Shown here: piece by piece, positions 841-42,153 of the stretch
Numbering within the stretch: position 1 is the first letter of the stretch
How the letters are laid out: each line of letters opens with the position of its first letter
DNA from: Pseudomonadota bacterium
Lineage (GTDB): Bacteria > Bdellovibrionota_B > Oligoflexia > Oligoflexales > RGVZ01
Reading direction: 5' to 3'
DNA length: 60,502 nucleotides
Assembly: GCA_041178085.1 (NCBI GenBank)
Contig: JBEGVZ010000075.1
Span: forward strand, 1-60,502
Translations under genes and position numbers: made by a program
The notes under the pieces: model-generated
Seen by the model: the letters and a program-made list of their open reading frames with translations, nothing else
What the model was told of the DNA's origin: nothing
Database searches by the model: none

Positions 841-1575
841 TTATTCGACGGCCTTTGGCACGTTGTGTAGCTTCACAGGCTTCGCTCTCTTGGAAGAGAT
901 GCGGATGTTGATGAACTCAACGAAGACGCTGAAACCCATGGCAAAGTAAATGTATCCCTTCGGGACATGCATGCCGACACCGTCCAGGACCAGGAACAGG
1001 CCGATCATCATCAGGAAAGAGAGCGCCAGGACTTTAACGGTCGGATGACGGTCGACAAAGTCGGAGATTGCGCCAGAGGCGGCGAGCATCACGGCCAGGG
1101 CGATGATGTTGGCCAGTACCATGATCGCGAGGTTATTGCTCATGCCGACGGCGGTGATCACCGAGTCGAGTGAGAAAACAATGTCGATCACCATGATTTG
1201 CGCGACGGTCCACGCCAATGTCGGGCGCTTCAGTTTGGCGTCAGGGGAATGTTCTGAACCTTCGAGTTTGTCGTGGATTTCGCGCGTTGCCTTGAACAGC
1301 AGGAATACCCCGCCAAGGATCAGGATCAGGGATTTTCCGCTGATGGGCGTTTCGAATACTTGAAAGAGCGGGGTTGTCAGTTTGGCAATCCAGGCGATCG
1401 TTGCCAACAAGCCAAGGCGAGAGACCAGTGCCCCGAGCAAGCCAAGCTGTCGCGCCGTCTTTTTTTCATGCTCCGGCAGTTTTCCGGCAAGAATCGAGAT
1501 GAAAATGATGTTGTCAATCCCGAGGACGATTTCAAGAATGGTCAGTGTCAAAAGACTGAGAAGCATTTCCGTCAC
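841..1575 (-). CDS. TerC/Alx family membrane protein
   Basis: LEIVLGIDNIIFI and DIVFSLDSVITAVGM signatures; multiple TM helices. Confidence 0.93.
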   Translation of the reverse strand: MTEMLLSLLTLTILEIVLGIDNIIFISILAGKLPEHEKKTARQLGLLGALVSRLGLLATIAWIAKLTTPLFQVFETPISGKSLILILGGVFLLFKATREIHDKLEGSEHSPDAKLKRPTLAWTVAQIMVIDIVFSLDSVITAVGMSNNLAIMVLANIIALAVMLAASGAISDFVDRHPTVKVLALSFLMMIGLFLVLDGVGMHVPKGYIYFAMGFSVFVEFINIRISSKRAKPVKLHNVPKAVE

Positions 1576-2133: not shown

Positions 2134-2841
2134 ATGCTTAATATCCGGAAAAGTCATGAACGTGGGCACTTCGACCACGGCTGGCTGAAGACCTGGCACA
2201 CGTTCAGTTTTGCCCAGTACTTCGATCGCCACAATATGTCCTTCCGGAACATTCGCGTGATAAACGAGGACATCGTGGCCCCCATGCAGGGATTCGACAT
2301 GCATCCCCACAAGGACATGGAGATCATCACTTGTGTGGTCAGCGGCGCGCTCCAGCACCGCGACAGCCTGGGTAATGGTGCGGTGATCAGGCCGGGTGAG
2401 GTTCAATACATGTCCGCTGGTTCCGGCATCTTGCATAGTGAAGTCAATCCTCTTTCCGATGAGCCCTGTCATTTGCTGCAGATCTGGATCCTGCCCCGCC
2501 AACAGGGCGGCGAACCCACCTATGACCAGCGCAACTTTGAAATCGGTGAATTGACGCGTATTGCCGCACCGGACAGCGATCCGCAGGTGGGATCGGCCAT
2601 TCCCATCCGTGCCGATGCCAGCCTGTATGCGGGGAAGGTGGGGCCTTTGTTTGACCGCGAAATTCCATTGAGGAACGGTAACTGCTGGATCCAGTTGATC
2701 CGCGGGGAGCTTGATGTCAAGGCGCAGGGCGGGACGTGCAAGATGTCGCCCGGTGACGGGTTGGCCATCAGCGACGAGCGGGAGATTCATGTCCGGGCTG
2801 GCACCGGTGGCGCCGATTTCCTGCTGTTTGACTTGTCTTGA
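2134..2841 (+). CDS. Pirin family protein (YhhW-like)
   Basis: RG..DHGWL.T.HTFSF, HPHKDMEI, HRDSLGN, MSAGSGILHSE, LQIWI; strong SD GGGGAGGTG. Confidence 0.95.
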   Translation: MLNIRKSHERGHFDHGWLKTWHTFSFAQYFDRHNMSFRNIRVINEDIVAPMQGFDMHPHKDMEIITCVVSGALQHRDSLGNGAVIRPGEVQYMSAGSGILHSEVNPLSDEPCHLLQIWILPRQQGGEPTYDQRNFEIGELTRIAAPDSDPQVGSAIPIRADASLYAGKVGPLFDREIPLRNGNCWIQLIRGELDVKAQGGTCKMSPGDGLAISDEREIHVRAGTGGADFLLFDLS

Positions 2842-2864
2842 AAATAATTGGCGGCAAAGAAGAA

Positions 2865-2891
2865 GGCCCGGCGGAACAAGTCCGCCGGGCC
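2865..2891. terminator. Intrinsic terminator hairpin between convergent genes
   Basis: Perfect 11-bp stem GGCCCGGCGGA-acaag-TCCGCCGGGCC; T-rich tails on both strands. Confidence 0.8.
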
Positions 2892-2952
2892 CTTTATCCT
2901 GTGTTATAGCGCATCATGCCATAAGGCCACTGGGGCCGCAGGATGTGCAACC

Positions 2953-3390
2953 TTAGTCGTTGCAGCAGCAGTCTTCGCATTCACAGTCGCAGTCACCGCA
3001 GGAACCGCCGTCACAGCAGTCGCAGTTATCGCAACCGCAGTCACAGCAGTGATCCTTGGCACCGCAGTCGCCACAGCTGCAGTCATCGCAGCCGCAATCG
3101 CAGTCACCGCAGGATCCGCCATCGCAGCAGTCGCAGTCATCGCAACCGCAGTCGCAGCAATGATCGCAGCCGTCGTCACAGCCATCATCACAACCGTCGT
3201 CGCAACCATCATCACACCCATCATCACAGCCGTCGTGATGGTCGTTGGTCTTGGCATCGTGGTGCTGTGCTTCCGTCGTGTGGCTGGCTTTTACGGGAGC
3301 TTTTCCGGCGGCAACAGGTGCGCCGTAGAGCTTGACAGAGAAGCCGAGCAGGAACATCAGGGCAAAAAGTTTGGTAAGGAAACGCTGCAT
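2953..3390 (-). CDS. Secreted Cys/Asp-rich repeat protein, metallothionein-like
   Basis: SD AAGGAG before ATG; signal peptide; His-rich linker; (DGCD)x6 then two 14-Cys modules; synonymous variation among the repeats preserves this frame. Confidence 0.85.
   Translation of the reverse strand: MQRFLTKLFALMFLLGFSVKLYGAPVAAGKAPVKASHTTEAQHHDAKTNDHHDGCDDGCDDGCDDGCDDGCDDGCDHCCDCGCDDCDCCDGGSCGDCDCGCDDCSCGDCGAKDHCCDCGCDNCDCCDGGSCGDCDCECEDCCCND
3163..3234 (-). repeat. Six tandem 12-bp coding repeats (DGCD)x6
   Basis: Plus-strand units atcgcagccgtc, gtcacagccatc, atcacaaccgtc, gtcgcaaccatc, atcacacccatc, atcacagccgtc differ only at third codon positions of the minus frame. Confidence 0.9.
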
Positions 3391-3392
3391 GA

Positions 3393-3480
3393 TGAACTCC
3401 TTGTTTCATGCGTTAATCAAAAAAAGATACGAATGTCAGAACGTGAATGCGCGGGTCAGACTAAGCGAGGAGGACGTTCA
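3393..3480 (-). promoter_or_regulatory. Putative anti-SD/SD pairing between the leader's E-R-P codons and the downstream RBS
   Basis: mRNA UGAACGUCCU (3480-3471) is complementary to AGGAGUUCA (3401-3393): 9 bp with one bulged G. Confidence 0.5.
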
Positions 3481-3833
3481 AGTCCGCCCAGCCAGCCATC
3501 CGCACGTAAGAGCGAAGCCTGGAACAAAAGCGGCAAGCCTTGATCGTTCAAGTAGGCCGGTACTGAACCAGTCTCCGGGTCGACCGGTTCCATGAGCATG
3601 GGGCAAGAGAAATGTGCGCAAGAATCACCGCAACAATCCCCGTCCTCACCTTGTTCATCTTCACAGCAGCAGCCTGAATCCATGCCGTCGGATGAGGCGT
3701 TTTCGATATTCTGGGAAAGATTGGTTTGAGTCAGCGCCGCATCAAGGTCAAACAGTGCCCATTGCGCGGCAGCTCGTCCGGCGAAGGTCACCGTGATGCA
3801 AAGAACAAGGATGTAACGCAGCGCTGTCATCAT
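3456..3833 (-). CDS. Secreted Cys-cluster leader protein ending in ERPPR (DUF2946/CruR/CutF-like arrest peptide candidate)
   Basis: Signal peptide (..GRAAA/QW); CCC..CC..C....C cluster; ends LERPPRLV; start abuts the SDR stop. Confidence 0.72.
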   Translation of the reverse strand: MMTALRYILVLCITVTFAGRAAAQWALFDLDAALTQTNLSQNIENASSDGMDSGCCCEDEQGEDGDCCGDSCAHFSCPMLMEPVDPETGSVPAYLNDQGLPLLFQASLLRADGWLGGLERPPRLV

Positions 3834-4637
3834 TCACCATGGTAGCACTTTTTTACCCCGCAGGAACAAGCCATTGATGGCTTTTGAGGCACCAATGGAG
3901 GCCACAAGGCGCGGGTCGCGTCCGGTATTTTTCGGCAAAGTGGCAAGCCAGACAATCATTTCCGCGCCTTGCGTCACGGTAACGTTTGCTCCTTCTCCAC
4001 CCATTTCTGTCTGCACCCACCCCGGACAGACTGCGTTGCAGAGGATATCGGGTTCGTTCAGTTCGCTTTCAACTTCCGCTGCCACTATTTTAGTCAATGC
4101 ATTGAGGGAAACCTTTGACAGGCGATAGCCAGGAAAACCTCCGCCCATCTCATGCATCTGACCCATTGCGCTCGACACATTGACGATCCGGCCATGATGT
4201 TGCCGTTGCATGTAGGGCATGATCAGCTGGGTCAGGACGAGGGGGCCGTAAACGTTCACATCCATGGTCTGACGGATGAGTCCAAGCTTGGCATCGAATA
4301 CGCTGGGTGATCCACCGCGCGCCCGGGAGGGGTCCAGGAATATTCCCGCGTTATTGATCAACGCATCTACGCGCCCCAGGTTGGTGTCGATGAACAGGCG
4401 CAAGTCGTTGGCGACCTTGGTGTCGTCGAGCCTTTGCACATCGAGCTGGTAAAAGAGGACGTCGTGGCCTTCCCCGGCCAGAACGCGCGTGGCCTTCTGC
4501 CCTTTTGTGTCGTCCCGCGCAATCATCAATACGCGGTATCCCCGGATGCCCAGTTGGCGGGAAACCTCGAAGCCAATCCCCCGGTTGGCGCCCGTAACGA
4601 GCGCAACAGGCTTGCTTGTGTCGGACGCGGGCACCAA
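3834..4637 (-). CDS. SDR family oxidoreductase (carbonyl reductase-like)
   Basis: TGANRGIG, NNAG, VSS, YRLSK, CPGWVQT.MGG. Confidence 0.93.
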   Translation of the reverse strand: MVPASDTSKPVALVTGANRGIGFEVSRQLGIRGYRVLMIARDDTKGQKATRVLAGEGHDVLFYQLDVQRLDDTKVANDLRLFIDTNLGRVDALINNAGIFLDPSRARGGSPSVFDAKLGLIRQTMDVNVYGPLVLTQLIMPYMQRQHHGRIVNVSSAMGQMHEMGGGFPGYRLSKVSLNALTKIVAAEVESELNEPDILCNAVCPGWVQTEMGGEGANVTVTQGAEMIVWLATLPKNTGRDPRLVASIGASKAINGLFLRGKKVLPW

Positions 4638-4647
4638 TTTGTGACCT

Positions 4648-6213
4648 CTAGCGCATGTTTTTCAGGCAATTACGCTGTGCTTCTTTTTTAAGCATAGCAC
4701 AGGTTGCGCGCCAATCAGCCATCACCCGGGCACGGGTCTTCTCGTCTTTCAAGGTATCGATAGCGGTTTTTACTTTTTTCGCCCGCATCGCATTGCGCCC
4801 GGAAAAGCCGTCCGGCATCGTCTTCGCCAGATCAAGCCAGTCACGGAGTCCCTGTTCAAACGCACCCTGGGGTAGCGCGTCTGGTGGGACTTTGCTTTGC
4901 AGGACCAGGTCGCTGACCATCCATTGAATCCTGGTCGCGTTGCCTTGTGCGCTCTGGCGGGCCTTGCGTGACCATTCAAGCGCCGCGGGCCATTCTTTGG
5001 CTTCCAGATGGATCATCGCAAGCGAGGACTGGTAGTACCAGGGAGTGTCGCTGCTGGCTGCTTCACGCTGCAGGATTTCCTTTGCCTTGTCGACATTCCC
5101 GGTGGCGGACAGGAGCATGGCTGAGTCAGTGACGATGGCGTGACGGTCAAAGGCCGACTTGCTTGCTGCTTCAGTTTTGACTGCCACAGCAGCCGCTTCC
5201 TTGCGGATCTTCTCCCATTCTTCCACGGTCAGGGCGGTTTTTGCCTTCAGCCAATTTGCAATTTCCCAGTGCAATGCGGTTGCCTGAAGCCGGTCTACTT
5301 CTGAGGTGGAGGCGCCGCCGGCGGCAAGGCGTGCCGCGCCACCGAGCGCCAGCGTGGCAACTTCGACGCTCTCTTTTTCTCCGGCGCGTTCGATCCAGCT
5401 CATCGCACCCGCGACGAATGGACCGCGTGCCGGAACAAGGGAGGAATCGTTTGCGGTGACAATCTTCAACAGTTCACGCGGTGAATCCGTCTCCAGATTC
5501 AGCAGGCGCGCAGCGAGCAACCCGCGGATTTCTTCGTGGGGGCATTTCTGAAGCAACTGGCGCAGCATCAATGCAGCCTTTTGGATGGCTTTTGCCTGGG
5601 GGTCAGGCGAAGTCTCCACCGGATCCCACGTGTAGGCAAGGAGGCGCCAGTCATCAAGGCTCGCCTTTCCGGATAGCGCCCTTTTGCGAACGCCTTCCAA
5701 GACGGCTGAACTTCCGCCTTTGCTTTTCCGTGATTCTTCCAGGGCGGGCGTGATCAGTGCCTTGAATTCGTCGAAGTTCACAAACTCTGCAAGGCGGAGT
5801 TGCTCTTTCATGGACGATGCTGCGGACTTTTCTTTTCCCTTGCGCTTGGGCTTGTCTGGCGTCAGCACAAGGACTGTCGGATATCCAGATACGGCAAGCT
5901 TTTCCCCCCATTCCTGCGCGCCGGCTTCGTCTCCGTCCAGGTAAATGCGGACGAATCCCTCTGTCGCGGAGGAAAAACCGGGATGACTGAAAACCTGTGA
6001 CTTGAGTTGGTTGCAAGGAGGGCACCAGACTGCTCCCCAATACAATAAGACCGGTTGATGGTTCCTCTGCGCTTGTTCGAGTGCTTCACCGACGGGCAAT
6101 TTGGACCACAGTTTACGGAATGCCTCGTCGTCAGCAGCTTGTGCGACGGATCCATGCAACGCGGCGCAAGTGATCAGCCATAAGCTTGCAAAATGATTGC
6201 GTACGGACATCAT
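4648..6213 (-). CDS. Secreted thioredoxin-domain protein with helical/TPR-like C-terminus
   Basis: Signal peptide MMSVRNHF...AQA/ADD; YWGAVWCPPCNQLK; GYPT cis-Pro motif; helical repeats (PWYYQSSLA). Start uncertain (6210-6234). Confidence 0.8.
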   Translation of the reverse strand: MMSVRNHFASLWLITCAALHGSVAQAADDEAFRKLWSKLPVGEALEQAQRNHQPVLLYWGAVWCPPCNQLKSQVFSHPGFSSATEGFVRIYLDGDEAGAQEWGEKLAVSGYPTVLVLTPDKPKRKGKEKSAASSMKEQLRLAEFVNFDEFKALITPALEESRKSKGGSSAVLEGVRKRALSGKASLDDWRLLAYTWDPVETSPDPQAKAIQKAALMLRQLLQKCPHEEIRGLLAARLLNLETDSPRELLKIVTANDSSLVPARGPFVAGAMSWIERAGEKESVEVATLALGGAARLAAGGASTSEVDRLQATALHWEIANWLKAKTALTVEEWEKIRKEAAAVAVKTEAASKSAFDRHAIVTDSAMLLSATGNVDKAKEILQREAASSDTPWYYQSSLAMIHLEAKEWPAALEWSRKARQSAQGNATRIQWMVSDLVLQSKVPPDALPQGAFEQGLRDWLDLAKTMPDGFSGRNAMRAKKVKTAIDTLKDEKTRARVMADWRATCAMLKKEAQRNCLKNMR

Positions 6214-6361
6214 TTGGAAATTCCTCAATTGCATAAAACCCCTGGAATGACTGGCCTTGCAGCCAATTCGCGTTTCTTCGTAAAACGCGTTTGTGGTGCT
6301 AGCATACCAACTCAAATGTAGCTCGTCGCGTGAAACAAACTTCGATACAGGGGAGCTTCCC

Positions 6362-8167
6362 ATGAAACAGCAAGGCTCACGGCGATGGTCATCGCGCTAT
6401 TTCCTGACCGGTTCGCTGATCCGTTCAGTCATTGCATCGATTGCGCTCGTATTGCCAATACCAGGATTGGCTGCTGCCGACGCAGCGAAAGACGGGTCAA
6501 TCCATGTCGACCTCAAGTTCAACATCGAGGACCCATCAACCAGCGGACGTTGTCGTGCGGTGGACAGTTGCCGGCCGTGGGCCGAGGAACTGCCAGACTA
6601 CCGGCGCGAGCTTTTTCCGGTCGTCCCGGTACGCACAGTGAAGGTTCTGATACCACCGGGTCAGGAATACGCGGGCCTCAGCGTCGATGCCGGTGAGGGC
6701 GCAGAAATGGATTACGTCCCGGAGTTTTCCGGGCGCAATCGCGTGATTTCCCTGGGCTATGATCCGCGCAAGTTTTTGCCGCGTTACATGGGCGGAGTCT
6801 ATCCCCAGAAAGTGACTGGCGAAGTGCAACTGACGGACTTGCGTGGCTTCACGTTTGTCGAAGTACCTGTGTATCCATTTCAGGTAACCGGACCCGGCAC
6901 AGCACGTTACTTCAACTCGATCAAGGTGTCGGTTCAAACAAGGCCTGCCGCCAGCATGCCACGCAGTTCCCTCATGCGCCCGAACCTGGCCAGGGATTAC
7001 GAACTCGCCGTCCGGAACGTCGACAACGGCGTTCTTGCGCCGAAGGTCTGGTGGCAAATTCCGGCGCGGGATGAGGCGCCTGTCGGTTATTTGATCATCG
7101 GCAAGCAGGCGATCATCGGTGACGAGTCGAACACGGCTCTGCGTCCGTTGATTGAAGAGAAACGTGCGCGTGGCCTGAATGTCGAAATGGTTTCCCTTGA
7201 ATCGATCGCTGCCGGCGGCACTGTTGCGTCCAGCGCGCAGATCCGTGAATTTATCAAGCAAGCCTACGTGAGTCGCAGCATCGATTTTGTGCTGCTGGTG
7301 GGCGATAAGGCGAACTTGCCTTGGCAGAAAATCCGTTCCGGGATCAACGGCAACGGCGATCCTGTCCCGTCCGACCAGTATTACGCTTGCCTTGACGGGA
7401 CATTCACAGGCTCGACAAGTTCCTATGACTGGAATTGTGAAGTCGCAGTTGGACGTGTTGGTGTGAGCAATTCCAGCCAGCTTGCTGTATGGGTCAGCAA
7501 GCACATGGCCCTGGTCGAGGCAGCCAAGGCCGGGCGTACGACGCAGGCGCTTTCATACGGCGAAGAACTCGACAGCTCGACCCTTGGCAGTTGGGTCCTT
7601 GAGCATCTGGTCACGGGGCGTTCCGTGGCCCCGGCAACGGTGGGCTTCCCGGCCTCGACGGTTTTCACCAAGCTATACGATCAGTTCCGGACGCCGGTCA
7701 GTGCGTCGACAATGCTGAAAACCATGGAAGAAGGAGATTTTCATGTGCTGAATCACCTGGGTCACGCAAATTCGGATTACGCCCTTCGCATGAACGCGAG
7801 TCGCATCCCGGATTTCAAGTCCCGTCCGGCATTCTTCTATTCTCAGGGGTGTTACCCCAACAATCCGGACGTCGACAATTGGACCATCCAGGCCACGCGT
7901 TTCCCGGATTTCGGACCAGCGGCGATGATCTCGAACACGCGCTACGGCTGGTATCAGCCAGGGCGGGGCGGCGAGGGGAGCTCTGCCGTGTTGCACCGTG
8001 CCTTCTGGTCTCAGCGGTTCAAGGGCGGTATCAAGGCCATTGGCCAGATGAACCACTTCGCAAAGGCCGAGGTCCTTTCGGTGGACCGCTCGTCCCTCAT
8101 GGTGTACACAGCTCTTGAGTCAAACCTCATTGGCGACCCAGAACTGGACCTCATGATCGGCCAGTAA
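6362..8167 (+). CDS. Secreted C25 (gingipain-like) cysteine peptidase
   Basis: SD GGGGAG before ATG 6362; propeptide-like region; FVLLVGD, SDQYYA.LDG, VAVGR, catalytic HLGH and QGC, terminal NLIGDP. Confidence 0.87.
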   Translation: MKQQGSRRWSSRYFLTGSLIRSVIASIALVLPIPGLAAADAAKDGSIHVDLKFNIEDPSTSGRCRAVDSCRPWAEELPDYRRELFPVVPVRTVKVLIPPGQEYAGLSVDAGEGAEMDYVPEFSGRNRVISLGYDPRKFLPRYMGGVYPQKVTGEVQLTDLRGFTFVEVPVYPFQVTGPGTARYFNSIKVSVQTRPAASMPRSSLMRPNLARDYELAVRNVDNGVLAPKVWWQIPARDEAPVGYLIIGKQAIIGDESNTALRPLIEEKRARGLNVEMVSLESIAAGGTVASSAQIREFIKQAYVSRSIDFVLLVGDKANLPWQKIRSGINGNGDPVPSDQYYACLDGTFTGSTSSYDWNCEVAVGRVGVSNSSQLAVWVSKHMALVEAAKAGRTTQALSYGEELDSSTLGSWVLEHLVTGRSVAPATVGFPASTVFTKLYDQFRTPVSASTMLKTMEEGDFHVLNHLGHANSDYALRMNASRIPDFKSRPAFFYSQGCYPNNPDVDNWTIQATRFPDFGPAAMISNTRYGWYQPGRGGEGSSAVLHRAFWSQRFKGGIKAIGQMNHFAKAEVLSVDRSSLMVYTALESNLIGDPELDLMIGQ

Positions 8168-12423: not shown

Positions 12424-13569
12424 TCAAAGGGACAGGCTCGCGCCGGCAACCAAGGCCATCTCCAGCCCGGCCGACGGATCGACAGCACGCAGCAGGCTGG
12501 ACTTCAGGTCGGCGGTTGAAACATCTTGCGTGGTGTTGACGGTGCCAGTGACCGACGAGGTGACAGAGAATGGCACAGCCAGCACGAAATCCCCCGTAAA
12601 GTCCACGCCCATGAATTTGTAGCGTGCCCCGGTCGTCAACTCGACGGCAGGTGCCGATGCAATGACGGTACCGTCTACGATCTTCATCGTGGCCGCGCCC
12701 TTGACCTCGGACGTCACTTTTATAGTTGAACGCCTCAACCCAAGCCCGGCACTGGCCCTCCAGCCGATCACATCGGTCATGTTGCGATCCGTGCCGTACC
12801 AGACTGCCGCACCCAGATGGCTGACTGAAGTCGACGATTCGACGTAAGAGTTGACGTCGGTCAGGTCGTAATCGTTTTTGTAAGATACAGGACTCGTCAT
12901 TGCCCATGACAACCTGACGCCAAGGAAGTTTTGTGGATTCAAGAATGCAGTTCCCCACGAGAAGCGAAGGCCCAGCGGGGCAATGTTGAGCGTGTCACGT
13001 GCCTGGAATGGATCATTGTTGGTCTCGCGTGGGAGCGCCGCGAAAGACACACTGTTGGCTGCAATCGCCGGGCTCAGCTGCAACAGGTAACCCGCATCGA
13101 TTTTTTGCCCGCCAGGAAACCAGTTGGTGGGTGTTGTTTCAGGCGGAGCCGGGTGGGCTTCTGTTGGGTCTTCTTCCGTGGCGGTCTGGTCTTCCGCTGG
13201 CGACGCCTCAAGCGGGTTTTTCATCACCACTTGGGATCCCATGGACACTTCGGTCTCAAATTCCTGGGGAATGTAAAAAGCCGCCGCACGGGTGCGGACG
13301 TTTACCACCGGGGAACAAAAGAGGCGTTCCTTTTTGCTTCCTGCTTTCAGCACACACACTTCTGTCTGCAGCTGTATGCCATGGGAAGTGCCCCCTGACA
13401 TGACCGCGTAAGGTCCGGTTTGGTTCCGCTCCATGACCAGTACGGAGAAAACTCCGGCCTCGTTGCCGGCAGCCAGCGACGGCACCGCCAAACCAAGGCA
13501 TGCCGCAAAGACCAGGCATGCGCAGGCCGCCGGGCCACATGTCCAAAGCTTTTGACCGCCGCTTACCAT
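12424..13569 (-). CDS. Secreted hypothetical protein with probable C-terminal outer-membrane beta-barrel
   Basis: Signal peptide; small Cys-pair beta domain; Pro/Glu/Thr linker; amphipathic strands to the terminal AGASLSL. Confidence 0.65.
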   Translation of the reverse strand: MVSGGQKLWTCGPAACACLVFAACLGLAVPSLAAGNEAGVFSVLVMERNQTGPYAVMSGGTSHGIQLQTEVCVLKAGSKKERLFCSPVVNVRTRAAAFYIPQEFETEVSMGSQVVMKNPLEASPAEDQTATEEDPTEAHPAPPETTPTNWFPGGQKIDAGYLLQLSPAIAANSVSFAALPRETNNDPFQARDTLNIAPLGLRFSWGTAFLNPQNFLGVRLSWAMTSPVSYKNDYDLTDVNSYVESSTSVSHLGAAVWYGTDRNMTDVIGWRASAGLGLRRSTIKVTSEVKGAATMKIVDGTVIASAPAVELTTGARYKFMGVDFTGDFVLAVPFSVTSSVTGTVNTTQDVSTADLKSSLLRAVDPSAGLEMALVAGASLSL

Positions 13570-14858
13570 GTGGCCTCTGCCATCACGAAAAGATGATTAC
13601 CCATCGGCATGCTGCCGTAATCCTTCTGAACGTCCTTGTCGACGTAATGAAGCGTCACGTCCGCCCCAAGGCCTGTGGTCAAAATTTTATTGGACAGCGC
13701 GCTGACCTCCAGGAAGCTGCCCAAAGTCAGGGCGTTGATGCGGTGCACAGTTTCGTCGCTCTCGCCGCCTTTGTCTTTAAGATCAAGGCCGTGTTTGTCG
13801 ACGGATTCAAATCGCCCGTAGAAAAACAAACCATCACCCCAGGTCAGGTCCGTTTCGGCAAGCCAGGACCGGTTGACAGGAAATGCCTCGCCGTCCCCTT
13901 GGTCTGCGTCCGGTTCAAGGGATGCATTGAAATCTTCGTTTGCCAGCCTTTGCGTCGATCCGAAGATAAAGCTGGTGGCGTGCTGGAACGAACCTTTGTC
14001 GCCGGATTGCCAGTGCAAAGACGCCGTGGTCCGGCGCTGGTCACCTGGTTCAAGCACCTCCGGCGACTTCAGCACACCCGTGGACGTCTGAGCCTTCAGG
14101 CCCTCCCATAAGTGCAAGGTGATGCGAGTCGACCAGGAATCCATCTTGCCTTTGTCGATCTTGGTGCGGTTTTCGTCCGGTTCGCGGCCATTGAACTGCG
14201 AAAGTTCCGCTTCGACAATGTCCACCCGGACCCCGGCGTTCAAGACGCCCATCGAAACGTGAGTGGAGTCCTGGTAGTGATGCCCGAGCGGTGCCCACGG
14301 CAAATGCCGCGCTGAAGCACGGTGCATGAAGGGGTCGGGACCCAGGGCCGGCGAACCCACAGGCCCCCCTTGAACGAACACTCCGCTGCCCTTGCCGCCG
14401 AGCGGGAAAATGATTTTTTCCGTGATTTCCATCCAGACATCGTGCGGGTGCTGGCGGTCCAGCAAGGGTTTGTCATCGTACGTTTCGCCCGCCTGGAAGA
14501 GCTGTGGGGCCCCGCCTTTGGGCAGCGTCCAAGGTTCCAGGGTGGTCATGATGTGCGGCTCGACATTGATCGGGCCGAAGCTCCCCCGATAGACCATCAT
14601 TTGAAAGTTTTCGCTGGAACCCGCCGTTGCCCCGCGCGGTCCGCCTTGCCGGTTGTAGCCGGCCACCTGCCGGATATGAAAGGTGAATCCCTCGCTTTCA
14701 TGCTCCGCATGGCTGGCGGGTTGACGGTGGCCATGCAGTTCCATCTGGGCGAAAGCAGCTGGGGAGGCCAGCAAAGCAAAGGCAGGAAAAGCAAGCCGGA
14801 CGGGCAGGGCAGCAACACTGGATGTTGGACGGACCATTTGGATGCGCGCTCCGGGCAT
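13563..14858 (-). CDS. His-motif outer-membrane beta-barrel protein (DRQHPHD / HHYQDSTH type), putative metal-related
   Basis: Signal peptide; His-rich N-terminus; DRQHPHD, ALGP.PFMHR, GHHYQDSTH, FNGREPDE; terminal W. Confidence 0.75.
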   Translation of the reverse strand: MPGARIQMVRPTSSVAALPVRLAFPAFALLASPAAFAQMELHGHRQPASHAEHESEGFTFHIRQVAGYNRQGGPRGATAGSSENFQMMVYRGSFGPINVEPHIMTTLEPWTLPKGGAPQLFQAGETYDDKPLLDRQHPHDVWMEITEKIIFPLGGKGSGVFVQGGPVGSPALGPDPFMHRASARHLPWAPLGHHYQDSTHVSMGVLNAGVRVDIVEAELSQFNGREPDENRTKIDKGKMDSWSTRITLHLWEGLKAQTSTGVLKSPEVLEPGDQRRTTASLHWQSGDKGSFQHATSFIFGSTQRLANEDFNASLEPDADQGDGEAFPVNRSWLAETDLTWGDGLFFYGRFESVDKHGLDLKDKGGESDETVHRINALTLGSFLEVSALSNKILTTGLGADVTLHYVDKDVQKDYGSMPMGNHLFVMAEATW

Positions 14859-23465: not shown

Positions 23466-23786
23466 TTGGAAAAGGAAGTCGACAAGGCTAAGGCCAAAAG
23501 CATGCGCGGGTTTGCATCAATGGATCCGTCAGTCCAGCGCGCAATTGCCCGCAAGGGCGGACGGGCTGCACACCAGAAAGGCACAGCCCACAAATTTACT
23601 TCAGAGGAAGCTCGCCGTGCCGGGCGTAAGGGCGGTGAGATTGTCAGCCGCGATACGGCTCACATGGCCATGATCGGCCGCAAGGGCGGCGAGGCCCGTC
23701 GCGGTCTGGCTGCTCGCCGTAAGGCGGAGGCGCGTAAAAAAGATCAAGAATCAGAGAACCCTGAGCAGATTTCCAAGTCCGCGTAA
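23466..23786 (+). CDS. KGG-repeat general stress protein (YciG/GsiB-like)
   Basis: RGFASMD...IARKGG, FTSEEARRAGRKGG, HMAMIGRKGG; TTG start at 23466 after SD GAGGAG. Confidence 0.9.
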   Translation: MEKEVDKAKAKSMRGFASMDPSVQRAIARKGGRAAHQKGTAHKFTSEEARRAGRKGGEIVSRDTAHMAMIGRKGGEARRGLAARRKAEARKKDQESENPEQISKSA

Positions 23787-35897: not shown

Positions 35898-37148
35898 CTA
35901 CATTACGCCGCGTTGGGCGTTCATCCGGTCAAGCGCGAGGGAGCAAACCATGTCGCTGGTTGTGTTGACGGCGGACCTCGCTCTCGCCAGCACCCAGTCC
36001 ACGCTGAGCAGCAATGGGAGGAGTTCCATGGGCAGGTGCAGCGTTGACAGAACCAGCGAGAGGGAGACGAATCCTGCTTCCGGCACGCCAGCAACGCCCA
36101 TCGCGGCGACCAGGCATAAACCAGCAAGGGCAATCTGTTGTACCAGGGACAGATCGATGCCACTGGCCGTGGCAACTGCCAGCGCAGTGACTACCTCGTA
36201 CAGGATGATTCCGTCGTTGTTCAGGTTTGTGCCGACACAGGCCGCCAGTGTGGAAGATTTGCGCGACACTTTCAAATTATCCAGTGCTGCGAGGGTCAGA
36301 GGCAAGGTTGCCAGGCTTGAGTTGCATCCAAAGGCGTATGAGACCGGCTTGCGCGCAATTTGCCAGAATGCACCCAGGGATTGACCGCAGAACAGCTTTA
36401 TCCATGCGGAATAAACGAAAAATACGTGGATCATGAACCCGGCCATCACCACGGCAACATAAAAACCAAGTCCAGCAAACCCGGCCAGGCCGCGCTCGCC
36501 AGCAGCTTTGGCGGAAACGCCGAATACGGCCAGCGGCACCAGCCAAACGACCCAAAGGATGCATTTCTCGGCTGTCTTGAGGAGCGCGTGGTTGATTTCG
36601 CTGACTCTGGCAACCGCGTTGGCGGCCTCTTTGGAGCTGTGCGCATGCATCCGCAGGCCAAAGCCTGTGAGCAGTGCCAGGATTACGACCCCCGCGATGT
36701 TTGCGTTCAGGAATGGGTCGATGATGCTTTTGGGCGTGATGTTTTCCAAGGTTTTGCCCAGTTCGATGCTCATTGGGGCTGGTACGCCATTCTTCGCACT
36801 GGTATTCGAATCGGATATACCGGATTCGGCGACTGATTTTGCAAGGGGAGCCAGAGCTGCTCCCGGGTTGAGCGTGGCTTGCAGTGCCAGGCCAATCGCC
36901 AGCGCGAGCACACCATTGATGGTGGTGACAGTCAGGAGGCGCGCAAAGCCCTTGCCATCGACCCCGGCGGACAGGATTGCATCCACAATGGCAAAGAAGA
37001 CGAGCGGCGTGGCGATCGTCTTGACCAGCGTTATGACCGGTTTTCCGGCATCGCCGAGCACGCCTGCTTCGGGGCCCAGAACGAGTCCAGTCAAAATCCC
37101 GACCAGAAGGCTGAACATGATCCACATTGTCAAACCGGGTTTTTTCAC
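35898..37148 (-). CDS. Dicarboxylate/amino acid:cation symporter (second DAACS)
   Basis: NSSLATLP, GTNLNNDG, GVAGVPEAG, DWVLARARSAVN. Confidence 0.9.
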   Translation of the reverse strand: MKKPGLTMWIMFSLLVGILTGLVLGPEAGVLGDAGKPVITLVKTIATPLVFFAIVDAILSAGVDGKGFARLLTVTTINGVLALAIGLALQATLNPGAALAPLAKSVAESGISDSNTSAKNGVPAPMSIELGKTLENITPKSIIDPFLNANIAGVVILALLTGFGLRMHAHSSKEAANAVARVSEINHALLKTAEKCILWVVWLVPLAVFGVSAKAAGERGLAGFAGLGFYVAVVMAGFMIHVFFVYSAWIKLFCGQSLGAFWQIARKPVSYAFGCNSSLATLPLTLAALDNLKVSRKSSTLAACVGTNLNNDGIILYEVVTALAVATASGIDLSLVQQIALAGLCLVAAMGVAGVPEAGFVSLSLVLSTLHLPMELLPLLLSVDWVLARARSAVNTTSDMVCSLALDRMNAQRGVM

Positions 37149-38422
37149 AACGTCTTGTCCGCCATTCGCAATCTTGACTCCAGGTGCCAGGTCAGCACGG
37201 GGACAAGCAGTGAGACAGCCATCGATATCATGGCGACCAGGGGCATTCCGGTCAACTTGCCTTCAGAGTCAGAGGTTAACAGCAGTGAGGAAACGAAGGA
37301 GCCGGTGGCCGAAGCGAAATGTTGCGTGGTCGATTGCAGCGACATGAACGCTCCCCGGTTGTCCTGGCTTGGGACTTGGCTAGAAATCGTGTTGTAGGAG
37401 ATGGCGCGGATCGATGTTCCGGCCATGAAAAAGACTGCAATCAAAACCGGATTAAACCAGTCGGCGTGTCGGTAAAAACCTGTCGTTAGCGTAAAAAGAA
37501 TCAGGATTGTTCCAGCCGCGGAGATACGTGTGGCGCCGTAGCGGTCTGTCAGCCTTCCGGCGATTTGCATCGACAGCAGGCTGGCGATGCCGCCGCACAG
37601 GTAGAGCAAGCCCATGTGGGCTCGCGGGAAGCCCAAATTCTTTTGCACAAAGGCGGCAATGTTCGGGATCACGATGAACCCGCTGAACATGACGCTGGCC
37701 CCGAGCGCCATCGACATATGTGTGGATGCCTGGCGCAAAAGGTGCTGCAGGGCCTGAAGGTTCTGACGGCTGCCCGATACAAGCCTGGCCGCCTTTGCCG
37801 GGGTGGTCGATGGCATCCTTTCCGGGCGCAGCAGTAACCGGATCGCGGCGGTCACAAAGGCCCCCAGGCAACCCACCGCAAAAAACGGTGTGCGCCAGGA
37901 ACCTGCCGCGGCTAGCTCCAGTCCTGCCGGGACACCCAGGATGGAAGCAATTGAAAAGGCGCCCATGACGATACCCAGGGCGCGGCCCCGCTTTCGCACG
38001 GGAATGCAATCTGCCGTCATGGCCAGGGCAAGGGCCGTCGCTGGCCCGCCAAACATTCCGGCAGTCACCCGTGCCGCAAGCAAGGTCGCCAACCCGGTGG
38101 AAATGCCCCCGGCGACTGTAGCGATAGAAAGTCCCGCCAGGGCAGTGGCGAGGGCTTTTTTGCGTGGGAAGCGGTCCAGAAAAAAGGCAGAGACGATTCC
38201 GCTCAGGGCGGCAGCAGCTGTGTAACTACCCCCAATGATTCCGATTTTTGAAGTGGGTATGCCCAGCTCAGCGCTGAAGTCGGGCCCCAAAGGCATAACC
38301 ATCATGAAATCGAGGATGTTGACGAACTGCACCATGGCCAGAAGTAGCACCAGTTTTGTTTCTTCGCTGGTCAGGCGAACTGACGCAGGTGCAGGTCTCT
38401 GCTGTTCAATTTTTGGTCGCAT
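37145..38422 (-). CDS. MFS transporter
   Basis: QFVNILDFMMVMPLGP, motif A (DRFPRKK), GR.TDRYG; about 12 TM segments. Confidence 0.93.
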   Translation of the reverse strand: MRPKIEQQRPAPASVRLTSEETKLVLLLAMVQFVNILDFMMVMPLGPDFSAELGIPTSKIGIIGGSYTAAAALSGIVSAFFLDRFPRKKALATALAGLSIATVAGGISTGLATLLAARVTAGMFGGPATALALAMTADCIPVRKRGRALGIVMGAFSIASILGVPAGLELAAAGSWRTPFFAVGCLGAFVTAAIRLLLRPERMPSTTPAKAARLVSGSRQNLQALQHLLRQASTHMSMALGASVMFSGFIVIPNIAAFVQKNLGFPRAHMGLLYLCGGIASLLSMQIAGRLTDRYGATRISAAGTILILFTLTTGFYRHADWFNPVLIAVFFMAGTSIRAISYNTISSQVPSQDNRGAFMSLQSTTQHFASATGSFVSSLLLTSDSEGKLTGMPLVAMISMAVSLLVPVLTWHLESRLRMADKTL

Positions 38423-38512
38423 GTTGCTCCGGACGCCATGGAAGAGGCAGAGAGAGTGACTCCGGATGCCTGCAACACCTCGGAACTACTGTTGTTATCA
38501 AACTGCTTGGGG

Positions 38513-38529
38513 CTGGCACGTTCGCTGCT
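38513..38529 (+). promoter_or_regulatory. sigma54 promoter driving the putative small RNA
   Basis: CTGGCACG-TTCG-CTGCT with GG-N10-GC spacing; predicted +1 about 38540-38542. Confidence 0.65.
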
Positions 38530-38541
38530 AAATGGGTCCCA

Positions 38542-38661
38542 GGAGTTGACTGGCTGACCACCTTCGCCAGCCGTCATAAGCTGGTGATCCTGCTGATGCT
38601 GCGTTTGTTGTGTACCCCGTGAAAGCTGCCGTTGATCCATCCAAACCAGCCAGTCAGCTCC
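38542..38661 (+). ncRNA. Putative ~120-nt structured small RNA of unknown family
   Basis: 15-bp closing stem GGAGUUGACUGGCUG / CAGCCAGUCAGCUCC and internal 8-bp hairpin; both need a G-U pair that exists only on the + strand; 5' end matches the predicted sigma54 start site. Confidence 0.65.
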
Positions 38662-38681
38662 GTTTCCGTTATTCCCCAAAA

Positions 38682-40061
38682 TCACCCGGCCAGTTTTTGT
38701 GAGCATGCGCGCATCGCGTTCGAAACGGACGCTCGAAGGGCCTCGTGTCCAGCACTCGCGTTTGGCCATACGAGAACCGTTACCAAATCTCCGGCGCCGC
38801 CCGGCAATTTGATGGCCCGGGCCAAAAGCACACTTTCAGAGGTTCTCAATGCGGTCTCGATGGCGGTCCGCGGTTCACCAGGCTCGATCAGGTCGAGGGA
38901 CGCCTTGACTCCGGCATCGTCGTCCGCGGGGATTTGCAGCCAGCCGTCGGATTCCATGACTTCCGGAGCGTAATTGGTGATGGCCTCCATGAGGGAAGGG
39001 GTCATGTCTCCCCGCAACTCGCCAAGCGCAGCGACCGCCACGGACTCTGGACCCGACCAAAGAGCGCCCTCGATGGCGCCGTTTTCTCGCCTTACCGCCA
39101 CGCACCCCGCGTCGATACCCGCCCCAAACAAACTGCCCACCAGCAAGGACAGGGCTGCAGCCGAATTCTCTGCCACAGTCATGTCCATCAATTTCTTGTT
39201 CAGTTCCAAGAGTGCCTTGTTGGCGGCGGCTTCGTTGGCAGCAATTGCCGGAGCGCCTGTGAATTTCGGCGCGAAGGGCTGAGCAGTCGGAGGGGTGGCA
39301 GGTGCTTCTTCAACTGCCGGTCCTGCGTCCGCTGTTGTCTCTGCGGCCAGATCTCCGACGGCCGGTTCCGTCGCGGGATTGGGGGCTGCCTCGGCCGTCG
39401 CCGCGACCCCGGTTTCGGGGCTTGATTCCACTTCGGGGGCGTTTGCCTCCGGGCTTTCCACCGGGGGTATGGTTGCCTCTGCCTCCTCCGGCGCACTAAT
39501 CGGGGCATGGCGGGAAACAGGTTGAACCAGTTGGGCCACCAACTCTTTGGCCCGGTCCTGGCGGCTGCGGCTGGTCTTCAGCGCTGACAAATGTGTGGCC
39601 ATGAACGCCTCAAAAGCAGAGGGTTCAGGCTTGTAGCCCGGGATCAGCCGGGATAGTCCCTGTCGCACCTGCCTCAGGGTCGCGATCAGTGGCTTGATCT
39701 TGTATCCCGTAAAAAATTCCAACTGGTGGAGGGTCGCCCGGTCCAGCGGGTCAATCATCGCGACCGCAAGGATGTTGGAGTCCAGGCGCAGGGGAAGGAC
39801 TTCCAGTTGGCGAAGGAGGGGCGTGTCGATCGCCCCCAGGGCGCGATCATCGATCTCGGAAAAGATGTCCTTGGCGGCTACCCGGTAGTGGGTCCGGTCG
39901 GCAAGGAACGCTGCCAGTTCTTCTTCGTTAAGGAGGCCCAGGGCAAGGATTCCCCGTGCAAATGCACCCGCAGAGTTTCCTGAGGCTTCCTGGATGGTCT
40001 TCCTGTCGCCCTCTGAAAGCAGGCCTTCTGCGACCAGGAGTTGACCCAATTTCGTCGTCAT
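38682..40061 (-). CDS. GspE/PilB N-terminal (MshEN-like) domain protein without ATPase
   Basis: KLGQLLVAEGLL..., VLPL....L.VAM.DP.D....L.F.TG..I.P; Pro/Ala/Glu linker; no Walker A motif. Confidence 0.8.
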   Translation of the reverse strand: MTTKLGQLLVAEGLLSEGDRKTIQEASGNSAGAFARGILALGLLNEEELAAFLADRTHYRVAAKDIFSEIDDRALGAIDTPLLRQLEVLPLRLDSNILAVAMIDPLDRATLHQLEFFTGYKIKPLIATLRQVRQGLSRLIPGYKPEPSAFEAFMATHLSALKTSRSRQDRAKELVAQLVQPVSRHAPISAPEEAEATIPPVESPEANAPEVESSPETGVAATAEAAPNPATEPAVGDLAAETTADAGPAVEEAPATPPTAQPFAPKFTGAPAIAANEAAANKALLELNKKLMDMTVAENSAAALSLLVGSLFGAGIDAGCVAVRRENGAIEGALWSGPESVAVAALGELRGDMTPSLMEAITNYAPEVMESDGWLQIPADDDAGVKASLDLIEPGEPRTAIETALRTSESVLLARAIKLPGGAGDLVTVLVWPNASAGHEALRASVSNAMRACSQKLAG

Positions 40062-40211
40062 CCGGGCTCCGTGAAATAGCTGAAAATTTGGCTTGGTTTT
40101 ATGTTACCACAGCTTCTAATATGACGGGGCATGGACGCATTGGACTCCCGGGATCCTGAGGATCTCACGGCGTCCCAGACCACTGGATCTCTTTTAATCG
40201 GCAGGTTGCAC

Positions 40212-40979
40212 ATGACGGAAATCAAAAAAGCAGAGCTCAAGGGACCGGACGCCTTTCAGGCGCGGATATTTATCGCGATCAACTGGTTGGTTGCCAACAA
40301 GCGGCAGGTTGGGCTGTTCCTTCTCCCACTGGTGGTGGTTGCGGTCGCGGGCTTTACCTGGCAGGCGGTGTCGGGTCACTTGAAAAACCGGCGCATGGCA
40401 GATCTGGCTGGCATTGAGGAGAAGTACGCCAAGGAAACCGAGGAAGCTTTCAAAAAAGCCGACCCGGCGTCCGCTGGCAAGGTGACCCCAGACCACTCAG
40501 CTTCTCTGGCGTCCTACCTTGATTTTGCAAAGAAACACCCTGGGAATGAAGAGGGTTGGACTGCAGGATTACGCGCCGCCAATATCCTGCTCGACAAGGA
40601 AGCCCCTGAACACGAGTCCGCGCGGAAACAGATCGAAGCGGTGGTTGCCAAGTCCACGGCTTCGCGCTTCCACCAGATCCTCGGACGTTTCATGCTGTTG
40701 GCGGTTTTGGAAGATACAAAGCAGTATGACGAGGCCCTGAAACACGCGGCGGCCCTGTCCGGCATCCTTGATGCAGAGCAGCCCCGCAAGTCGGAAGGCA
40801 AATCCCCCCTGGTCACGGAAATCAAACCCCGCCTGCTGTTGAGCAAGGCGCGTATCGAGCTGGCCAAGAACTCCAAAGATGATGCCCGGGCAACGCTCAA
40901 CTCGATCATCAAAGACCACGGATTCTCTGAAGAGGCGGCGACAGCGCGCGCAATGTTGACCATGGCGGCAGCGAATTGA
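40212..40979 (+). CDS. YfgM-like single-TM TPR protein
   Basis: ELKGPDAFQ lead-in, one TM segment, TPR-like helices; directly upstream of the BamB-like gene as in yfgM-bamB. Confidence 0.75.
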   Translation: MTEIKKAELKGPDAFQARIFIAINWLVANKRQVGLFLLPLVVVAVAGFTWQAVSGHLKNRRMADLAGIEEKYAKETEEAFKKADPASAGKVTPDHSASLASYLDFAKKHPGNEEGWTAGLRAANILLDKEAPEHESARKQIEAVVAKSTASRFHQILGRFMLLAVLEDTKQYDEALKHAAALSGILDAEQPRKSEGKSPLVTEIKPRLLLSKARIELAKNSKDDARATLNSIIKDHGFSEEAATARAMLTMAAAN

Positions 40980-42106
40980 TGTCCAGGCGATGTCTTCACA
41001 CAGCGGTCTTGGCAATTGGCCTGTATGCATGCGCTGGTTCTGGTCTGGCGGCGACCACTTCGCCCAGCAGGCCATTTCGTCTTGGCAGCATGCGCCTGAT
41101 GCCGGAAGTGGACGCAACCAAGCCGGTGGGTTTGGCGCTCCGTTCCGGTTTCAGCGTTCAGGGGGACACCCTGATCGGGGACTGGGGTGAAGGCTGGGTG
41201 GGAGCACGATCTTCCCGCTCCAAGAGGTTCTCCTGGTGGTTCAATGCGGGTGCGGAAGTTAGCAGCCCGGTATTCAACGCCGGCGGCTTCATTGTGTTCA
41301 GCACCCGCGCAGGAAAAGTATTCAAGCTGGATATTGCGACCGGAAAACGCGCATGGGAAGCCACCCTCGACTCCTTCAGCGATCGCAAACCGCTGGTGTC
41401 CGGGTCGACGGTAATCGTCCAGGCGGCATCGCAAGTCATCTATGCCCTCGACTATCAGACAGGCAAGAGTCTGTGGCTTTACGACGCCGGTTTTCCCGAA
41501 GGTTTGACGGTCAGCGGTGGACCAACACCCGTGGTCTGGGCGGATTCCCTGATTGCGGGATTGGCGAACGGCGATCTAGTCGGCATCAACCTGCAGTCAG
41601 GCAAGCAGGCATGGCGCGTGAGTGCTCCGGTGAGCGAGGCCAGGTTCCATGATGTGGTCGGTGAGCTTTTTGTGCGTGATGGCCAGTTATTCGCCGCGCG
41701 CTACGACGGGACTGTGACGGCTTTTGATGTCAAGGACGCCAAGGGTGGCGAACCACGGGTCATCTGGCAAGAGAAGTTCCCCGGTATCTCTGTGGTAACC
41801 CACCGCAACGGCAAGATGTTCCTTGGCTGCGTGAACGGGGACGTGGTCGCGCTTGACGAGATGAACCAGGGACGGCAGGTCTGGCGTGCTGCCAACGGTG
41901 GCAGCGTGACCACACTTACTGCCGCGGAATCGCGCTTGATCGCGTCAACGTCCGACGGACGAATTTTTACCATGGACCTGCAGACAGGCGAGCTGCTCTG
42001 GCACGATTCGTTGGGATACAGCGTCATGGCGGCGCCGCTGTTCATCGATGACGGCATCTATTTCATCACGGGTCTTGGCAACGCTTACGGGTACCGACTT
42101 CTTTAG
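40979..42106 (+). CDS. bamB: PQQ-repeat beta-propeller lipoprotein, BamB-like
   Basis: Lipobox LYAC; repeated ALD..TGK..W blades; RF.DV motif; synteny with the yfgM-like gene. Confidence 0.75.
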   Translation: MSRRCLHTAVLAIGLYACAGSGLAATTSPSRPFRLGSMRLMPEVDATKPVGLALRSGFSVQGDTLIGDWGEGWVGARSSRSKRFSWWFNAGAEVSSPVFNAGGFIVFSTRAGKVFKLDIATGKRAWEATLDSFSDRKPLVSGSTVIVQAASQVIYALDYQTGKSLWLYDAGFPEGLTVSGGPTPVVWADSLIAGLANGDLVGINLQSGKQAWRVSAPVSEARFHDVVGELFVRDGQLFAARYDGTVTAFDVKDAKGGEPRVIWQEKFPGISVVTHRNGKMFLGCVNGDVVALDEMNQGRQVWRAANGGSVTTLTAAESRLIASTSDGRIFTMDLQTGELLWHDSLGYSVMAAPLFIDDGIYFITGLGNAYGYRLL

Positions 42107-42153
42107 GTCTACCGCGGCCAATTGTTGCTGTTTTTATGCGTGACTCTTCGGGG

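Follow-up and report, generated by a model that had tools for sequence, protein, structure and literature searches.

Reviews describe bacterial metallothioneins as rare and cytoplasmic proteins (PMC12193353 for the location) and the known exported copper stores as folded, Tat-exported bundles. A stretch of 60,502 nucleotides of an Oligoflexales contig, referred to here as the window, raises the question of whether a bacterium may also send a cysteine-dense, metal-binding chain out of the cytoplasm. A first-pass annotation of the window had picked out an open reading frame (ORF) with a signal peptide, a His-rich linker, (DGCD)x6, and two 14-Cys modules and had taken the product for a modular, exported metallothionein-like protein. 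No strand was named; the ORF lies on the minus strand. Here, we consider whether this ORF is a gene, what accompanies it, and what its cysteines may be for.

The Cys gene and its family

The features of the gene are as follows.
2953 to 3390, minus strand (3390 to 2953): gene for a predicted exported Cys/Asp/Gly-rich protein (here, the Cys protein), 145 aa plus stop, supported by orthologues and selection
3322 to 3390, minus strand: predicted Sec-type signal peptide, residues 1 to 23, with a basic n-region and a hydrophobic core (hydropathy)
3235 to 3321, minus strand: His/Lys linker, residues 24 to 52, with 5 His (from the translation)
3163 to 3234, minus strand: (DGCD)x6, residues 53 to 76, six 12-nt units, all different
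3055 to 3165, minus strand: Cys module 1, residues 76 to 112, 14 Cys (from the translation)
2956 to 3054, minus strand: Cys module 2, residues 113 to 145, 14 Cys (by comparison with module 1)
3397 to 3402, minus strand: Shine-Dalgarno (SD) sequence AAGGAG, 6 nt before the ATG of the Cys gene
2863 to 2893: hairpin rich in GC that resembles a terminator on either strand and lies between the Cys gene and a converging pirin gene (pattern match only)

The translation agrees with the first-pass description in most respects. Within 145 aa, the protein has 34 Cys, 33 Asp, and 20 Gly. The annotated 34 Cys in 93 residues is correct for D53 to D145, and every Cys falls between C55 and C143 (89 residues); the Cys region has a single Lys and no Phe, Trp, or Tyr, again as annotated. 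Likewise recovered were the His-rich linker (its 5 His within residues 37 to 52), (DGCD)x6 at residues 53 to 76, and the two 14-Cys modules, which begin at D76 and D113, 37 aa apart. At 17 Cys per 40 residues, no other of the genome's 43,913 open frames is as dense in Cys (runner-up, 12). The mature chain of 122 residues would carry a net charge of about −32.

Hydropathy and a predicted helix at residues 2 to 22 back the annotated signal peptide, and one is present by sequence pattern in all 11 loci introduced below; cleavage is probable after Gly23, and there is no twin Arg. Signal peptide calls for both this protein and the leader described below are sequence-pattern and hydropathy heuristics, not SignalP predictions. 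The helix is the sole confident part of the AlphaFold2 model (11 alignment rows; mean pLDDT, 42.6), with residues 23 to 145 below 50, which is weak evidence given the shallow alignment. Taken together, these patterns make export of the Cys protein very likely.

A search of 131 genomes found the Cys gene in five, all from one Oligoflexales genus: that of the window and 4 of 6 other genomes of the genus, with 0 of 124 elsewhere. Six metagenome loci bring the total to 11. The homologue search that the first-pass annotation had proposed thus added ten loci, all of which retain the start, SD, and signal peptide. Two genomes of the genus (G002 and G005, 89 to 90% complete) yielded neither the Cys gene nor the leader with these queries, nor the pirin gene and a close orthologue of the neighboring short-chain dehydrogenase (SDR). 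No Pfam, NCBIfam, or PDB sequence matched the Cys protein (the best NCBIfam hit was FliH, E 0.07), and recognition in the ESM Atlas was low. Searching 5.8 billion proteins with phmmer returned two matches, one orthologue and one compositional look-alike that is eukaryotic in appearance; a profile search of 1.84 billion representatives returned three, one orthologue and two that we read as compositional; a search for shorter proteins (30 to 52 aa) returned none. A second match in G003 (L006) was dropped as a shadow frame. Judged by sequence, the protein appears to found a small, genus-restricted family that is metallothionein-like in look and falls outside the known bacterial metallothionein families in both sequence and predicted location.

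Of the proposed modular, exported metallothionein-like protein, the conservation, composition, Cys spacing, and metal-sensor-type leader uphold a real, modular, metallothionein-like, and probably exported product, but the 2 × 14-Cys plan is not a family feature, because the orthologues have 15 to 31 Cys in other repeat patterns. Internal repeats in G003 are near-identical (1 difference in 57 nt), so some length variants may be assembly collapses; four short variants without context (P0004, P0006, P0009, and P0010), also possible collapses, stand outside the 11 loci. The repeat in the window is not an assembly artifact of its genome, since a contig from a run of another study (X2) covers the whole locus in one piece, with 7 differences.

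Selection on the protein, deduced in the first-pass annotation from the repeats, is also visible between loci. All 11 loci conserve the start and the first ~45 residues, after which comes a Cys/Asp/Gly tract with 15 to 34 Cys; GGAG stands 6 nt before the ATG in all five genomes compared. Over the first 27 codons, pS is 0.54 to 0.76 and pN is 0.09 to 0.16 in 8 of 10 pairs, and the two closest pairs give pS/pN of 0.27/0.11 and 0.15/0.02. Signal peptide identity is 80% over the 25 N-terminal residues (pirin, 62 to 71%; SDR, 75 to 83%), with invariant blocks KLFA, GFS, and KLYGAP, and its synonymous sites are near saturation, which indicates that constraint acts on the peptide; its conservation is on par with that of neighboring enzymes. 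In a related strain (run X6), 5 of the 9 in-gene differences listed are synonymous, and none listed removes a Cys. As for the claim that the repeats differ only synonymously, variation among the six DGCD-coding 12-nt units is confined to third codon positions, and 7 of the 8 changes in the 24 codons shared by modules 1 and 2 are synonymous; the eighth is non-synonymous (D/N), and the modules diverge beyond that stretch.

Could the plus-strand Ala/Val/Thr ORF (2848 to 3543), or another frame, be the one expressed, with the Cys frame as its shadow? A codon-usage caller trained on the window genome scores the plus-strand ORF at +17.5 and the Cys ORF at −15.4, and the exact Cys protein has no match in a collection of 15 billion proteins, for which the caller's antisense preference may be the reason. 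However, the plus-strand ORF is missing from the collection too, whereas the Cys orthologue of G004 is annotated (NDE16843.1, hypothetical protein). Substitutions are mostly synonymous in the Cys frame only: the in-phase antisense frame has no synonymous excess (pS, 0.06 to 0.46; pN, 0.05 to 0.29), reads the internal duplication as 7 non-synonymous changes to 1 synonymous, is closed by a stop after 4 codons of the gene in two genomes (G004 and G006), and has ends that are not conserved. Conservation of the SD, start, and signal peptide belongs to the minus strand. This alternative, raised by the first-pass annotation itself, is largely refuted and in our view barely credible, and the Cys ORF is almost certainly a real gene. 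Among the sequencing runs for the locus, no RNA run is listed.

An upstream leader ORF and the gene neighborhood

Upstream of the Cys gene is a leader ORF that was absent from the first-pass annotation. Its features and those of the neighborhood are as follows.
3391 to 3455, minus strand: intergenic region, 65 nt (59 to 69 nt in 11 loci), C>G, U-rich, with a U7 run
3456 to 3833, minus strand (3833 to 3456): leader ORF, 125 aa, with a putative signal peptide, CCC, CCxxxC, CP, and C-terminal ERPPR
3603 to 3671, minus strand: leader Cys cluster C55 to C77, candidate metal-sensing site, six Cys invariant
3465 to 3479, minus strand: ERPPR, candidate ribosome-stalling motif, with RPP three residues from the stop
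3834 to 4637, minus strand: SDR gene, its stop abutting the leader start
4648 to 6363, minus strand: predicted exported thioredoxin-like (WCPPC) protein with TPR repeats, two genes upstream, co-oriented, and conserved in relatives
2134 to 2841, plus strand: pirin gene, converging on the Cys gene
841 to 1575, minus strand: TerC-family membrane protein, in a DUF4442-TerC unit that diverges from pirin and is conserved in relatives

At every one of the 11 loci, an RPP tail of the leader stands 59 to 69 nt upstream of the Cys gene. Six of these leaders are complete and intact, four are cut by a contig end, and one is broken, that of G004 (L003:1880-2210, G004:C82), where an in-frame stop follows CCC, the frame changes, and the CCxxxC stretch is missing, with the Cys gene intact; this may be real decay or an assembly collapse. 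C55 to C57, C67, C68, C72, and RPP are invariant in 13 of 13 alignment rows, and each of 12 homologues from the protein collection has RPP and then three residues to the end. Spacing from CCxxxC to the Arg is 52/51/47 in ten of these homologues and 54-55/53-54/49-50 in two, and CCC floats, 61 to 69 residues before the Arg. A hydrophobic core and a conserved AAA-Q cleavage-like site suggest a signal peptide (heuristic). Among 19,825 frames of the genome, 128 have an R.?PP tail and 14 of these a Cys/His site at the leader's distance; the leader has the highest hydrophobicity score of the 14 and is the sole one that we read as a signal-peptide ORF. Leader and Cys protein have no detectable relationship (hhalign probability, 1.4%). 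A leader-profile match in G075, covering only the N-terminal part of a 435-aa frame, was dropped. Leader homologues P0019 and P0021 are more distant, and one of them is on a contig of 337 kb; the genes that follow them may be diverged Cys-rich ones.

CutF-like proteins, gathered by jackhmmer from CutF seed lists, have been defined as shorter than 150 aa, with PP in the last 15 residues, a co-oriented gene <1,000 nt downstream, a signal peptide, and a Cys/His site, and the resulting list holds 5,334 proteins, as described in PMC9973294. The leader has 125 aa, PP 3 residues from its end, a co-oriented gene 65 nt downstream, a heuristic signal peptide, and CCC and CCxxxC in 13 of 13 rows. With CutF itself (Rhodobacter capsulatus cutFOG), as described, it shares a length of <150 aa, a Sec-type signal, CxxxC, a PPRL tail, a co-oriented gene within 100 nt, and a target that detoxifies periplasmic copper (putatively so here). 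CutF is reported to end in PPRL (bioRxiv 10.1101/2025.02.05.636593); the tail of the window leader is GLERPPRLV, with PPRL before its last residue. The two differ in that the CutF target is a multicopper oxidase and that of the leader a Cys-rich chain, CutF has PPP where the leader has RPP, and the leader has no HMM-level match and is not first in its operon. CutF is also described as acting through an SD-shielding stem-loop that the stalled ribosome melts, and none was found at the Cys gene.

CruR of Bordetella pertussis (DUF2946, PF11162), for which arrest has been demonstrated in vitro (PMC12992588), likewise has a motif that ends three residues before the stop (PMC9426467). Its Cys-to-motif spacing is reported to be fixed, at 45, a trait that the leader shares, with 47 from CxxxC and 39 from CxxC (8 of 12 homologues); the C>G, U-rich intergenic region at the Cys locus might, if weakly, suit Rho control as in CruR. 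Unlike the leader, with RPPR and 59 to 69 nt to the next gene, CruR has RAPP and a reported 162 nt; it precedes a TonB receptor, none being present at the Cys locus; and it is described as shutting down uptake in copper, a condition in which a sponge should instead be turned on. DUF2946 genes head operons, whereas the leader abuts the SDR gene, with no promoter-like site found. The leader scores below every DUF2946 (PF11162), CopL-type, and NCBIfam cut-off, with HYC_CC_PP in 1 of 13 rows at E 1.6; its nearest ESM Atlas clusters are unnamed (0.96), and the nearest named ones are DUF6660, DUF6769, and DUF2946/CzcI (0.94 to 0.95). From its sequence, the leader thus appears to be built like CutF and CruR and to be CutF-like by rule, not by HMM; we do not file it in DUF2946 because no cut-off is reached.

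How the leader might act on the Cys gene is less evident from the RNA. Folding found no CutF-type SD-shielding stem and no strong anti-SD hairpin conserved across loci; all that it placed over the start codon was a weak, local hairpin. In opening energy, the ribosome-binding site ranks at 0.52 among 300 genes, the median for the genome, and masking a ribosome on the PP codons barely shifts the value. Folding likewise lent no support to pairing of the leader Pro codons with the SD, to ribosome-dependent opening of the binding site, or to a terminator hairpin conserved ahead of the U-run. All 10 loci compared have more C than G in the intergenic region (median ratio in the background, 0.95), a bias in related loci that is partly forced by the Pro codons, and T4 lies ≤14 nt from the leader stop in 9 of 10 loci, the window being the exception, versus 23 of 231 background pairs, again with the loci related. 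These features are weakly compatible with a Rho- or pause-type route. A promoter scan returned 0 promoter-like sites, and the leader start abuts the SDR stop, so that the leader is not first in its operon; SDR and leader are probably co-transcribed. We consider it quite likely that the leader controls expression of the Cys gene. Judged by the nature of the target, induction by metal would be the putative direction of control.

TerC proteins have been linked to metal loading of exported proteins, and the TerC gene, 1.4 kb away, is the only known metal-handling gene adjacent to the Cys gene. The thioredoxin-like protein might reduce or isomerize disulfides of the Cys protein in the periplasm. 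In G003 (90% complete), the pair of leader and Cys gene sits beside an MFS gene, its contig ending inside the leader, and the pirin gene and a close SDR orthologue were not found; the leader-Cys gene link thus outlasts the downstream neighborhood. The G003 cassette (L044, G003:C34) is convergent to the MFS gene of an MFS-MshEN-BamB-ManC block, which in the window lies at 37145 to 43335, at a distance of 34 kb and with the relative orientation reversed, marking a rearrangement next to the Cys gene.

Metal thiolate, disulfide, or modified peptide

The core of the Cys protein is 35% Asp, 32% Cys, and 18% Gly, with a core Cys fraction of 34 to 38% in the five genome copies. Of 269 Cys-Cys gaps in 13 sequences (P0004 and P0006 included), 190 are CC, CxC, or CxxC, and 0 of 11 mature chains have aromatic residues. 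These traits match descriptions of metallothioneins (PMC7558416, PMC4101491, and PMC12193353). With the metallothioneins (vertebrate 20-Cys forms, SmtA/BmtA of PF02069, and MymT), the protein also shares expansion by repeats and the lack of a predicted structure without metal, the latter a weak likeness given the shallow alignment. It differs in its signal peptide, its 34 Cys, the ~35% Asp of its core, and its charge of about −32, and its core has one Lys where classical metallothioneins contain Lys. It matches no metallothionein family or structure, including the SmtA/BmtA HMM and zinc-finger fold, and the cytoplasmic location of bacterial metallothioneins is at odds with a signal peptide, by sequence pattern, in 11 of 11 loci. 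Where metallothioneins have an SmtB-type repressor, this gene has a leader ORF in cis, with metal binding putative here.

A CopA-type ATPase is above cut-off in the window genome, no multicopper oxidase was found in the 7 genomes of the genus, and neither Csp (DUF326) nor SmtA (PF02069) was found in the window genome; together these absences leave a gap that a periplasmic sponge would fill. We judge it fairly probable that the protein forms metal-thiolates in vivo.

The envelope into which the chain would be exported bears on an opposing reading, close to the alternative offered in the first-pass annotation (a disulfide-rich Ca-binding or mineral-templating protein), in which the protein is a disulfide-cross-linked polyanion of the envelope, capsule, or a mineral template, its carboxylates binding Ca or Mg and its Cys being structural. 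VKOR is present in 7 of 7 genomes of the genus and DsbB in 0 of 7, and in the window genome VKOR is fused to a DsbA-like domain.
G000:C90:9192-10358, plus strand: VKOR fused to a DsbA-like domain
Even Cys counts outnumber odd ones 190:85 among exported proteins, compared with 371:402 among cytoplasmic ones (heuristic sets), and odd counts occur in only 15 of the 72 exported proteins of the window genome with ≥5 Cys (57:15 even:odd). This bias and the VKOR-DsbA pathway indicate that the envelope is oxidizing and that exported cysteines are oxidized. The even count of 34 in the window protein, the acid:Cys ratio of 1.0 to 1.9 in the family, and the exported thioredoxin-like (CPPC) gene two genes upstream on the same strand would also suit a disulfide-linked protein. 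Yet Cys counts run from 15 to 34 across the family, are odd in 5 of 11 proteins, and shift by single units between close relatives (15, 16, and 17), which a fixed disulfide fold should not tolerate, although the 6:5 even:odd split of these related sequences does not differ significantly from the exported set (Fisher P, 0.12; binomial P, 0.06). Against it, too, are the many CC and CxC pairs and the DxDxDG Ca loop, which is missing from the window protein and occurs once each in 3 of 11. A Cys-sensor leader would also be left unexplained, and we consider this reading unlikely.

Alternatively, the thiols might form a periplasmic redox buffer or sacrificial sink for oxidants and electrophiles, with the leader sensing disulfide-forming capacity. 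RAPP and RGPP leaders are reported to precede DsbA and thioredoxin genes as well (PMC12992588), the CutF model as described invokes disulfides in the sensor (bioRxiv 10.1101/2025.02.05.636593), and the neighbors here are a thioredoxin-like protein, SDR, and pirin. Those neighbors appear dispensable, however, the G003 pair lying beside an MFS gene (on a contig that ends inside the leader) in a 90%-complete genome that yielded no pirin gene or close SDR orthologue; CutF-like leaders of the Cys type are described as mostly preceding Cu-homeostasis genes (PMC9973294); and the His-rich variants, with up to 13 His per protein, suit metal ligation. A redox role is, in our estimation, distinctly unlikely.

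An enzyme-modified peptide precursor, with ranthipeptide-type Cys-Asp thioethers or as a bufferin/oxazolin-type MNIO product, would give the N-terminus a role as recognition leader, and its 25 residues are as conserved as the neighboring enzymes (80%); Cx3[DE] occurs 10 to 18 times per protein, though composition alone predicts many. This reading fails for lack of enzymes: DUF692/MNIO proteins number 0 in the window genome (G000; 96% complete), and no SPASM enzyme is adjacent, the one SPASM protein being on another contig beside a Pro-rich lipoprotein. In the 11 loci, no modifying enzyme was seen adjoining the gene, and such a precursor is very improbable.

A proposed metal sponge behind a candidate stalling leader

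Overall, we lean, if slightly, toward the Cys protein as a thiolate sponge for soft metal, probably Cu(I), that works outside the cytoplasm and is gated by a stalling leader. In this scheme, the leader would be exported co-translationally. Its CCxxxC lies ~47 to 55 residues from RPP, a distance close to that spanned by exit tunnel and translocon together, so that the Cys site could be in contact with periplasmic metal at the time when the Pro-Pro codons occupy the ribosome. Metal on the leader would alter stalling and, through it, how strongly the following gene is expressed, as described for CutF and CruR. The Cys protein would be exported by Sec and lose its signal peptide, and the mature chain, with no hydrophobic core, would fold around soft metal ions via its 34 thiols. 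Its carboxylates would attract cations and, by general chemistry, may raise the Cys pKa and so make the thiols slower to oxidize. With a single Lys in the core, a net charge of about −32 should work against cluster folding unless extra cations bind. Vertebrate metallothioneins are reported to hold 7 M(II) (PMC7558416) or 12 M(I) (M12S20; PMC2365167) for every 20 Cys; scaled accordingly, capacity would be ~12 divalent or ~20 Cu(I) ions per chain. The likeliest role would be sequestration of Cu(I) (or Ag, Cd, or Zn) outside the cytoplasm by an organism with CopA and in which no multicopper oxidase was found; copper as the main metal is an evenly balanced call.

Acid-rich thiol chains of this kind have an engineered counterpart. 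EC20, (Glu-Cys)20-Gly, is described as chelating Cd, Hg, Zn, Pb, and Cu in bacteria (PMC4611968) and has been displayed on the outer membrane or cell surface (PMC4611968 and PMC5992296), which implies that acid-Cys chains can work outside the cytoplasm. Like EC20 and the phytochelatins, the Cys protein has about one acidic residue per Cys, plus Gly (PMC4611968); EC20 is engineered and uses Glu, whereas the Cys protein is natural and has Asp, irregular CC/CxC/CxxC spacing, a His linker, and its own regulator. Csp1-type proteins are also exported and Cys-rich with a high Cu(I) capacity (putative for the Cys protein), as described in PMC7558416. Csp1 is a Tat-exported, pre-folded four-helix bundle, whereas the Cys protein carries a putative Sec-type signal, has no helices predicted in its mature chain, and does not match DUF326. 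In a bolder form, the Cys protein would be an exported bacterial metallothionein akin to a gene-encoded phytochelatin of extreme capacity, its acidity keeping thiols usable in a DsbA-VKOR-oxidized periplasm, that replaces multicopper oxidase as the periplasmic copper defense. A ribosome-stalling sensor acting across the membrane would turn it on by a path that does not involve melting of an SD hairpin. We offer this combination tentatively and, taken whole, lean against it.

A search of mostly non-subscription literature, at the level of titles and abstract openings, returned no natural signal-peptide-bearing bacterial metallothionein and none behind a stalling leader. Metallothionein-assisted periplasmic lead sequestration has reportedly been described for Providencia vermicola, according to a title from 2017, and could bear on novelty. 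The supplementary text of PMC9973294, in the portion outside its list of 5,334 proteins, makes no mention of metallothionein, Oligoflex, Bdellovibrio, or cysteine-rich. If the sponge reading is true, a Sec-exported chain of 34 thiols in an oxidizing periplasm would represent a third means of buffering soft metals beyond the cytoplasm and would raise the question of how 34 thiols escape DsbA. The CutF/CruR-type stalling sensors, few of which have been tested, would also gain a class of target and a lineage that are new to them. Codon-based callers prefer the antisense frame, so such genes are missed. The unit of leader and Cys gene is 0.9 kb, small enough for assay in E. coli, and a high-capacity exported chelator may have use in metal capture.

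Elsewhere in the window, two adjacent exported-looking proteins without a Pfam match are encoded at 12424 to 14837 on the minus strand, one of them (424 aa) His-rich after its signal peptide, and a small KGG-repeat stress protein (PF10685) is encoded at 23466 to 23786 on the plus strand.
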